Virus record (IMG/VR): IMGVR_UViG_2711768000_000008
DNA length: 4,624 bases
Reading direction: 5' to 3' (one strand)
From: a virus
Taxonomy: Duplodnaviria > Heunggongvirae > Uroviricota > Caudoviricetes
Shown here: positions 1 to 4,624 of the stretch, piece after piece
Layout: every line of letters begins with the position of its first letter
How positions within the stretch are numbered: the stretch's first letter is position 1
The notes under the pieces: model-generated
The model's input: the letters and a program-made list of their open reading frames with translations, nothing else
Told to the model about the DNA's origin: nothing
Database searches by the model: none
Translations under genes and position numbers: made by a program

Positions 1-151
1 CTCTTTAGAGTAACGTTGGGTTTTTCTGCTCATTATTAGCTCCTTCTGATGCCATTCTATTTCAGGAAGGAGTGTCCGTTAAACTCAGGCTACCTCAGGT
101 TATTCGCTTCTGGGCATGGGCGGATCAACAAATGATAGACGGTAATGCAGA

Positions 152-174
152 TTGTAACGCTCGCGGCGTTACAA
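152..174. repeat. Palindrome TTGTAACGC-n5-GCGTTACAA (iteron-like)
   Basis: Perfect 9-bp inverted arms at 152-160 and 166-174, read directly. The core 7-mer recurs at 363-369, 375-381 and 398-404. Confidence 0.5.
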
Positions 175-362
175 AAAGTGCAATAGATCGCATCACTTTT
201 ATGTCTGGTTTTGCTGATGCGTTAATTCAGGTTGGATGGCTGGTCGAAAATGACGGAGGGCTTTCTCTACCTAACTTTGAACGTCATAACGGAAAAAGCT
301 CTAAAAAAAACGGGCGGTTACAAACGAGCGAGTAACAAAAATACGCGAACTGAAACGAAAAG

Positions 363-405
363 GTAACGCTGCCAGCGTTACACAAACGGATCAAAAAGCG
401 TTACC
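363..405. repeat. Palindrome GTAACGCTG-c-CAGCGTTAC plus an extra GCGTTACC half-site (iteron-like)
   Basis: Perfect 19-bp palindrome at 363-381, with a further GCGTTACC at 398-405. It sits in an A-rich, purine-rich stretch of the initiator gene. Confidence 0.5.
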
Positions 406-780
406 AGAGGAAGAGGAAGAGGAAGATCTAAATACTGATCTCCCCCTCGCCAAAAACGAGCGTCTAAAAAATTCGAGCCGGAGGCTATTGAGCTGCCCGA
501 TTGGTTGCCGGAAACACTCTGGCATGAGTGGGTCCGGTTCAGACAGGCATTGCGAAAACCGATTCGAACGGAGCAGGGCGCTAACGGGGCGATACGGGAA
601 CTGGAAAAATTCCGTCAGCAGGGTTTTACACCTGAGCAGGTGATTCGACACAGCATCGCCAATGAATACCAGGGCCTGTTCGCGCCGAAAGGTGTTCGGC
701 CTGAGACGTTGCTCCGACAGGTTAACACCGTCTCGTTGCCGGACAGTGCGATCCCGCCAGGCTTCAGGGGGTAACGGACC

Positions 781-1211
781 ATGAAAAATATTGCGACAGG
801 CGGCGTTCTGGAACGCATCCGCCGACTGACCCCGCCACATGTAACCGCCCCATTCAGAACGGTAGCGGAGTGGCGCGAGTGGCAACTTGCTGAAGGCCAG
901 AAACGTAGCGAGGAGATCAACCGCCTGAATCGCCAGTTGCGGGTGGAAAAAATTCTGAATCGCTCAGGCATCCAGCCGTTGCACCGTAAATGCTCGTTTG
1001 CGAATTACCAGGTGCAGAACGACGGCCAGCGATACGCGTTAAGCCAGGCGAAATCCATCGCCGATGAACTGATGACCGGGTGTACAAATTTTGCGTTCAG
1101 CGGAAAACCTGGTACCGGGAAGAATCACTTAGCGGCAGCTATCGGGAATCGCCTGCTGAAAGACGGTCAGACAGTGATTGTGGTTACCGTGGCTGATGTT
1201 ATGAGCGCCCT
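781..1211 (+). CDS. DnaC-family helicase loader (phage paralog), 5' portion only; 3' end lost in the N run
   Basis: ATG at 781 follows a GGGG run at 767-770. The N-terminus, NRSGIQPLH, CSFANY, and the Walker A block FSGKPGTGKNHLAAAIGN followed by TVADVMSA all track E. coli DnaC as I recall it. Host DnaC is about 245 aa, so the true stop should fall near 1500-1540 inside the mask. The ORF-track extension to 1722 is an artifact of reading through N. Confidence 0.88.
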
Positions 1212-3438: not shown

Positions 3439-3688
3439 NNNNNNNNNNNNNNNNNNNNNNNNNNNNNNNNNNNNNNNNNNNNNNNNNNNNNNNNNNNNNN
3501 NNNNNNNNNNNNNNNNNNNNNNNNNNNNNNNNNNNNNNNNNNNNNNNNNNNNNNNNNNNNNNNNNNNNNNNNNNNNNNNNNNNNNNNNNNNNNNNNNNNN
3601 NNNNNNNNNNNNNNNNNNNNNNNNNNNNNNNNNNNNNNNNNNNNNNNNNNNNNNNNNNNNNNNNNNNNNNNNNNNNNNNNNNNNNNNN
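3439..3688. other. Run of 250 N (undetermined or masked sequence)
   Basis: Literal n characters, flanked by a candidate promoter upstream and a strong terminator downstream. Confidence 1.
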
Positions 3689-3884: not shown

Positions 3885-4172
3885 ATGAAAATCGAAGAAT
3901 TGCGTGAAATTTTTAGTGAAAATGGCCTCTATGCTGTGCGCGTTGAGAATGGAGCGATTGTCAGCCATTGCCGCATTAGATGTTTGCAATCTCAACAAAG
4001 GAAGAGCGGTGCTGTGTTATTTTATTTTTGTAATGGACTTCTGACGGACGGTTTTATTTTGCGTGAGGACGAATTTGTCACATCATTACGGGTTTTGAAA
4101 GAGATTGGTTTTAAGGCTGGTTTTCTGCTTTTGCTGAAGAATAAACTCATCTACAATCTTGAGCAGGATTGA
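3885..4172 (+). CDS. Hypothetical 95-aa protein, AT-rich, no family recognised
   Basis: ATG 3885 is the first start in an ORF that opens at 3816; GAAGG at 3871-3875. Visibly AT-richer than the neighbouring genes. Stop TGA 4170-4172. Confidence 0.55.
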   Translation: MKIEELREIFSENGLYAVRVENGAIVSHCRIRCLQSQQRKSGAVLFYFCNGLLTDGFILREDEFVTSLRVLKEIGFKAGFLLLLKNKLIYNLEQD

Positions 4173-4210
4173 ACTCCTGCTGTGTAACACCGTGCCACCG
4201 GAGAAAGCCG

Positions 4211-4564
4211 ATGGCACATATACAACTGGTCAAACAAACCTCTTCCGGATTACTTCTCCCGGCGACGCCGGAGAGTTGCGATTTTCTGCATCAAATCAAA
4301 ATAGGTGAGTGGATACACGCAGACTTTAAGCGTGTGTGTAACTACGCATTCCACAAGCGTTTTTTCAAACTCCTGCAACTGGGTTTCGATTACTGGACTC
4401 CGGTCGGTGGGGCGATCACGCCTCGCGAACGAAAACTGGTGTCCGGTTTCGTTGATTACCTGTGTGAATCAGTAGGCCGGGAACATACGCCAGCTCTGAG
4501 CGAAGCCGCAGAGCAATTGAGGTGTACTGGCAATAGCGGACACTACCATTTGTTCTTTTTTTAA
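4211..4564 (+). CDS. Hypothetical 117-aa protein, no family recognised
   Basis: GGAG at 4200-4203, 7 nt before ATG 4211. The ORF track starts it at TTG 4169, which has no SD. Ends in a T7 run (FFF then TAA 4562-4564). Confidence 0.55.
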   Translation: MAHIQLVKQTSSGLLLPATPESCDFLHQIKIGEWIHADFKRVCNYAFHKRFFKLLQLGFDYWTPVGGAITPRERKLVSGFVDYLCESVGREHTPALSEAAEQLRCTGNSGHYHLFFF

Positions 4565-4624
4565 GCAGCCATCTGATGATATTTTTCCCTGAAGGCTGCC
4601 GGGGAGATATTCCCCAGACGAGAG

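Follow-up and report, generated by a model that had tools for sequence, protein, structure and literature searches.

Two indels and an IS600 insertion very probably account for a prophage replication-initiator gene split over three reading frames in Shigella sonnei

The window analysed here, a stretch of 4,624 nucleotides from a tailed-phage record (IMG/VR IMGVR_UViG_2711768000_000008), contains at positions 98-774 what its sequence identifies as the 3' remnant of the replication-initiator gene of a lambdoid (Rac/YdaU-type) prophage, located in the chromosome of Shigella sonnei. The remnant is spread over three reading frames, and we are close to certain that this reflects gene decay, with three independent and real mutations inactivating the gene, and neither recoding nor sequencing error. 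The three lesions (a run of six adenines lengthened to eight, a 10-bp deletion and an IS600 insertion) are present in many independent assemblies, and relatives carry the gene intact. Each of the two indels shifts the downstream homologous coding sequence to another frame, giving rise to the three-frame pattern. A functional initiator is probably no longer made, since the start codon has gone with the insertion of IS600 after codon 35 and two frameshifts follow. The coordinates of all features are collected in Table 1.

Table 1. Features of the 4,624-nt window, with the evidence on which each was placed
Feature	Position	Strand	Evidence or remark
IS600 left end (IRL and first orfA codons, MSRKTQRYSKE...)	1-97	-	inserted after initiator codon 35
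GGT, right copy of the 3-bp target-site duplication	98-100	.	L006 compared with intact L001
Initiator pseudogene segment 1, codons 36 to about 105 of 262	99-310	+	alignment to intact genes, translation
A8 run, A6 in intact genes; +2, first frame change	303-310	+	three intact E. coli genes; locus counts
Initiator pseudogene segment 2 (RAVTNERV...EEEEEEDLNTDLP), frame 2, 5, 8...	311-446	+	alignment, translation
(AGAGGA)x3 hexamer repeat, poly-Glu linker	406-423	+	Tandem Repeats Finder
Lone TCCCCCT left after loss of 10 bp (TCCCCCTAAA) between 7-bp direct repeats; second frame change	441-447	+	alignment
Initiator pseudogene segment 3, C-terminal, with DnaT-like domain, frame 1, 4, 7...	447-774	+	alignment, translation
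A6 run, proposed second slip site, unchanged and uninvolved	466-471	+	A6 in all aligned intact genes
Start of DnaC-like helicase-loader gene, ydaV type	781-1211	+	PHROG 50 'DnaC-like helicase loader', E 5e-39; RefSeq ydaV in relatives
DUF1367/NinB-like gene, cut at 4517/4518 by second IS600	4169-4517	+	Pfam DUF1367, PHROG 319 NinB/Orf
IS600 right end (IRR and end of orfB), second copy in the same orientation	4518-4624	-	identical to L006 1762-1869

The intact form of the gene is well represented in Escherichia coli, where the initiator homologues are one ORF of 262 codons. A megablast search of complete E. coli genomes with window 1-1210 as query retrieved hundreds of close relatives, with homology starting only at window position 97, and in those genomes the same region is a single gene of 783-789 bp. 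The gene order in the relatives is cI-like, cro-like, ydaT, initiator, ydaV and DUF977. We assigned the initiator to its family by PHROGs and by its RefSeq name. Residues 1-262 of the intact 262-aa homologue produced a full-length match to PHROG 2509 'replication initiation protein' (E 1.2e-89), the O-like PHROG 678 was matched as well (E 7e-26), and RefSeq gives WP_001737256.1 the name 'phage replication initiator YdaU family protein'. The Pfam search of the intact initiator gave no family at E<=0.01, DUF1376 (YdaU) included, and the NCBIfam search gave no match. The ydaV-type gene, which encodes a DnaC-like ATPase, begins 7 nt past the initiator stop codon, and the part of it beyond 1211 is masked in the window by a run of Ns (1212-1602). 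This is the gene order of the Rac-type ydaU-ydaV module (initiator plus DnaC-like loader) found in E. coli and lambdoid phages, and the ydaU of phage Rac is 93.2% identical in DNA to the initiator gene; what sets the window apart from this module is the broken state of its copy, the gene of the relatives being an uninterrupted ORF of 260-265 codons. A literature search on ydaU/ydaV replication found nothing.

An additional feature of the family emerged from the intact homologue at L001 1398-2186, in which the C-terminal stretch of about 90 residues (170-262) resembles the C-terminal domain of the primosomal protein DnaT (PDB 2ru8, E 9.5e-5; also 9zbt). The similarity hints at a coupling of this initiator family with the helicase-loading machinery.

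Three-frame forward translation of the window placed the stop of the N-terminal frame (codons on positions 3, 6, 9...) at 333-335. The middle frame opens at 305, next to the stop at 302-304, and runs to 641-643, and the third frame is open from 439, after a TGA at 436-438, and ends with the TAA at 772-774. An earlier note on this DNA had described the same architecture in most respects: it read A8 at 303-310 and A6 at 466-471, ended the first frame at 335 and opened the second exactly at 305, all of which we confirmed. It had the second frame giving way to the third between 439 and 613; the first of these limits is right, and the second has to be moved to 641-643. The two A runs were also taken to be the sole homopolymers in the overlaps between frames, and here the second overlap turned out to hold a C5 (442-446) and two A5 runs (452-456 and 605-609) besides the A6.

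The alignment with three intact E. coli genes (783-789 bp) contains exactly two indels in the window, the first of which is the A8 run, with A6 as its counterpart. The first change is thus a gain of two bases, and not the loss of a single base proposed previously. Among the 140 viral and metagenome loci scored, which share the flanks of the A run, the run is A6 in 127, A7 in 3, A8 in 8 and A9 in 2; an intact ORF of 260-265 codons is present in at least 103 of these loci. None of the 162 matching E. coli complete genomes contained the exact A8 stretch, and in the species-representative genomes the variable-A-run pattern found A6 alleles only, one in S. flexneri and one in E. coli.

Other lengths of the run are found on different backgrounds. 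The A7 viral contigs (L031, L042 and L126) do not have the 10-bp deletion, differ in the copy number of the hexamer repeat and carry truncated ORFs of 117-123 codons. An A9 variant that does have the deletion, with no IS600 in the gene, is found in L016, L081 and L130, where the ORF has 222-224 codons. Judging from these alleles, the run length has been altered at least twice within the deletion lineage, and indels seem to recur at the A6 run, making it an apparent hotspot in the initiator gene family.

The second indel lies where intact genes read TCCCCCTAAATCCCCCT, and of this the window retains one copy of the 7-bp repeat. The earlier note had located the second frame change at the A6 run (466-471) and ascribed it again to loss of a single base in a homopolymer. 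The alignment to intact genes puts it at the junction 441-447, some 20 nt before the heptamer in question (466-472), as a direct-repeat deletion outside any homopolymer. From position 445 at the latest, homology to the protein runs in the third frame, and the S-K-K-F of the intact genes is encoded across the A6 run without any change of frame; the run is A6 in 112 of 112 scorable loci. An exact match to the deletion junction was found in 0 of 647 matching E. coli complete genomes, and the listed full-length matches among these genomes span 10 more bases at the deletion site. In the viral and metagenome set of 140, every locus with A8 or A9 has the deletion, and no scorable locus with A6 or A7 does.

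Repairing the two indels restores the gene completely. When AA is removed and TCCCCCTAAA is put back in window 99-774, the translation is identical in 227 of 227 amino acids to residues 36-262 of the intact protein, indicating that the decay is recent and that the remnant has no coding lesion besides the two indels. A9 and A7 at the two runs, which the earlier note took to give one continuous ORF, would leave the gene broken. The intact state proved to be A6 plus the 10 missing bases, and A9 does exist in nature (in L016, L081 and L130 as above), with the gene still broken by the deletion. The hexamer repeat situated between the two indels varies from 1 to 8 copies across loci and is always in frame, hence it is not the cause of the frame changes. 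The window has 3 copies, and some S. sonnei-type loci that are identical in other respects have 6-8; the repeat is an in-frame VNTR, still variable even in the dead gene.

The third lesion was not mentioned in the earlier note, in which the loss of the first 35 codons of the initiator also went unnoticed. The left IS600 copy runs past the left edge of the window, of which positions 1-97 are identical to L006 2930-3026, where a 1264-bp element ends. This element is 99.8% identical, over 1264 bp, to an annotated 'IS3-like element IS600 family transposase', and its ORFs match the NCBIfam IS3 transposase NF033516 (E 1e-99). L006 reads ...GGGAAGGT, IS600, GGTTATTCGC where the intact L001 reads GGGAAGGTTATTCGC, and the missing 35 codons are found in L006 beyond IS600. 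The gene fragment of the window is without a start codon because IS600 was inserted after codon 35.

The three changes can be described as follows. The A6 run became A8 (+2), most likely by replication slippage. One TCCCCCT copy and its AAA spacer were lost (-10 bp), for which slipped-strand mispairing is the most likely mechanism. IS600 entered after codon 35 with duplication of GGT, cutting the remnant off from its start codon and promoter. The indels are probably older than the insertion, since loci exist that have both indels and no IS600 in the gene, namely L020, L064 and L138 with A8 and L016, L081 and L130 with A9.

One alternative is that two programmed -1 frameshifts, or transcriptional slippage, at two A-rich heptamers would produce a full-length initiator from the three frames. 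A_AAA_AAC (305-311) and A_AAA_AAT (466-472) both have the canonical -1 slippery form X_XXY_YYZ, as the earlier note had recognized, and both proved to be in the correct codon phase. A hypothetical double slip leaves an open product, and runs of eight or more As are known to permit some polymerase slippage. Nevertheless, the homologues are single ORFs with A6 in the proportions given above, the start codon and the first 35 codons have been lost to IS600, and none of the matched E. coli complete genomes has the allele, which indicates a recent lineage-specific change and no conserved recoding signal. At a genuine frameshift site the homology should switch frame at the slippery sequence. In the case of the first heptamer the switch does coincide with it but comes about through the +2 insertion, and in the case of the second the switch is found at 441-447 and not at 466-472; moreover, a slip at 466-472 would exchange the conserved LNPPRQKRAS for LAKNERL. 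Folding of pseudoknot-free structures found no strong one 5-9 nt downstream of either heptamer. The first is followed only by a 5-bp stem with a 10-nt loop, with a strong hairpin about 50 nt away, and the overall fold z of -2.53 after it is driven by the palindrome at 363-381; after the second heptamer the fold z is -1.46.

Programmed -1 frameshifting was rejected on these grounds: the phase is right, but conservation is lacking, the switch at the second site is misplaced and the downstream structure is weak. Earlier, such frameshifting had been kept as a possibility, which the single-ORF A6 homologues, the lack of a convincing stimulatory structure and the severed start codon leave unsupported; the preference expressed at the same time for prophage decay went in the right direction. 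The comparison with established programmed sites (A_AAA_AAG of dnaX and those of the IS3-family transposases, IS600 among them) leads to the same result. The heptamers are likewise in phase, but here the two-frame layout is not conserved, no convincing stimulatory structure follows and the second breakpoint is a deletion located elsewhere, so that the likeness is one of letters only. We consider recoding to a full-length product highly improbable.

A weaker version of the same idea concerns the A8 run only. Since both A-run heptamers are in -1 phase, slippage on A8 could occur at a low level. The in-phase A_AAA_AAC and a tract long enough for polymerase slippage are the reasons for considering that some frame correction takes place there, and that a truncated N-terminal/linker fragment might then be made in the sublineages without IS600, which have A8 or A9 together with the deletion, and might keep some activity, for example binding to the GTAACGC-N5-GCGTTAC palindromes. 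The probability that we would assign to such a residual function is very small, of the same order as that of full recoding.

Decay by real mutations also has to be set against a technical explanation, namely miscalled homopolymer lengths in a genome whose initiator is really intact. Sequencing errors typically arise in such runs, and the A9 found for A8 in a few records (L016, L081 and L130) could partly be due to miscalls. However, the allele is far too widespread for such an origin. Outside its N runs, the window matches S. sonnei FORC_011 (CP010829.1; PMC5447701) and at least five other assemblies at 100% identity; the organism is documented for CP010829.1 only, and we infer it for the other identical assemblies. 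Identical alleles were found in at least 15 loci, complete chromosomes included, and A8 together with the 10-bp deletion in every locus of the window type, from short contigs of 4 kb to chromosomes of 4.8 Mb. An 87-aa ORF (72-335) that starts within IS600, spans the junction and is ended by the A8 run was present in 481 blocks of an assembly collection, mostly on contigs of 2-5 kb, a size that matches the expectation for a 4.4-kb segment between IS600 repeats in short-read assemblies. Because this ORF, which needs A8, is on record in 481 blocks, we treat sequencing error, one of the two options offered by the earlier note, as refuted. In addition, the second lesion is a deletion of 10 bp and not a homopolymer miscall, and the IS600 insertion is a third and independent disruption. 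Miscalling has in our estimate hardly any probability left, less even than recoding.

Equally implausible is that the A run acts as a contingency locus, a reversible on/off switch (phase variation) of the prophage initiator: the run does vary in relatives (A6, A7, A8 and A9), but its natural state is overwhelmingly A6 (127 of 140), on the background of the 10-bp deletion the protein is not recovered at any run length (the A9 ORF has 222-224 codons), with A7 or A10 the middle segment would be read in the frame that contains the stops at 364-366 and 436-438, and slippage cannot reverse the IS600 insertion. Compensation between the indels, or rescue by other A lengths, was examined separately and rejected, the net change being -8 with A8 and -7 with A9.

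What remains is a lineage-fixed pseudogene of an ordinary kind. IS600 belongs to the five IS that have expanded in all Shigella, and half of the pseudogenes of S. sonnei are caused by IS, with a further 12% having an IS plus another inactivating mutation (PMC7373316). The remnant belongs to this same class of Shigella pseudogenes, described in the context of reductive genome evolution (Hawkey et al., 2020, PMC7373316), in that an IS is combined with frameshifting indels and the lesions are fixed across many isolates. Nothing of substance differs, except that this example sits in a prophage gene and not in a metabolic one. The lesions bring no new biology, and the value of the case is mainly that of a negative result, since paired in-phase heptamers look like recoding and ordinary cryptic-prophage decay explains them fully. 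It also illustrates that the way to locate frame changes is to align the sequence with intact homologues, not to search for homopolymers. On a more practical side, small markers of lineages within S. sonnei could be drawn from the hexamer copy number, the A8/A9 run, and the presence of the 10-bp deletion and of the IS600 insertion.

Some other properties of the region deserve description. Two perfect 7-N5-7 palindromes (GTAACGC-N5-GCGTTAC) are located inside the initiator gene at window 154-172 and 363-381, and a third copy is found just upstream of the start codon in intact relatives (L001 1366-1384). The chance expectation for the window is about 0.01 such palindromes. Their spacing is some 190-210 bp, and they flank an A-rich stretch that holds the A8 run. 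In phage lambda, the origin lies inside the O gene, and by analogy the palindromes may be the predicted binding sites of the initiator itself (an origin inside the gene) or else an autoregulatory operator. A tandem repeat of 14-15 nt (AAACGAGCGAGTAAC, 2.2 copies, 83% match) directly after the A8 run, at 308-339, may be part of the same origin-like region.

The two runs of Ns in the window differ in length from the matching stretches of loci that are otherwise 100% identical (391 nt in the window vs 314 nt in L018 for 1212-1602, and 250 vs 287 nt for 3439-3688). The first hides the middle and the end of ydaV and the second most of a hok/sok-type toxin-antitoxin locus, for which Rfam sok RF01794 was detected at L018 5766-5941 (window about 3347 onward) and a Pfam HOK_GEF gene at L018 5936-6091.

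At the right edge of the window, a second IS600 copy interrupts the DUF1367/NinB-like gene, and the Pfam DUF1367 match covers profile positions 1-102 of 198 only. The ORF reads into IS600 up to an accidental stop at 4562-4564, whereas the intact relative L041 goes on as ...GAGCAATACC... past the cut point. The T7 run reported previously at 4556-4562 is indeed at that position. It had been thought to end the last gene, and it is in fact IS600 sequence (IS600 positions 1220-1226), an A7 on the minus strand located after the transposase TAA and before the terminal inverted repeat. In an S. flexneri locus (L004, 2801-2969) the IS600 end is found about 61 nt deeper in the same DUF1367/NinB-like gene, which suggests either an independent insertion or an IS-adjacent deletion.

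IS3-family transposases are known to use -1 frameshifting. IS600 orfA has an in-phase A_AAA_AAA near its end (IS positions 316-322, L006 2705-2711, outside the window), and in some assemblies a fused 385-aa product is encoded by an IS600 copy with two substitutions and no indel relative to L006. Since the fused product fits the frameshifting of the IS3 family, a real recoding site probably does exist in IS600 orfA, just beyond the left edge of the window.

In several draft assemblies (loci L010 and L012-L015) the sequence upstream of IS600 is not the 5' part of this gene but the replication module of another prophage, consisting of a DUF1376 initiator and an IS-truncated DnaC-like gene. This suggests either that prophages recombined through IS600 or that the repeat led to false joins during assembly.
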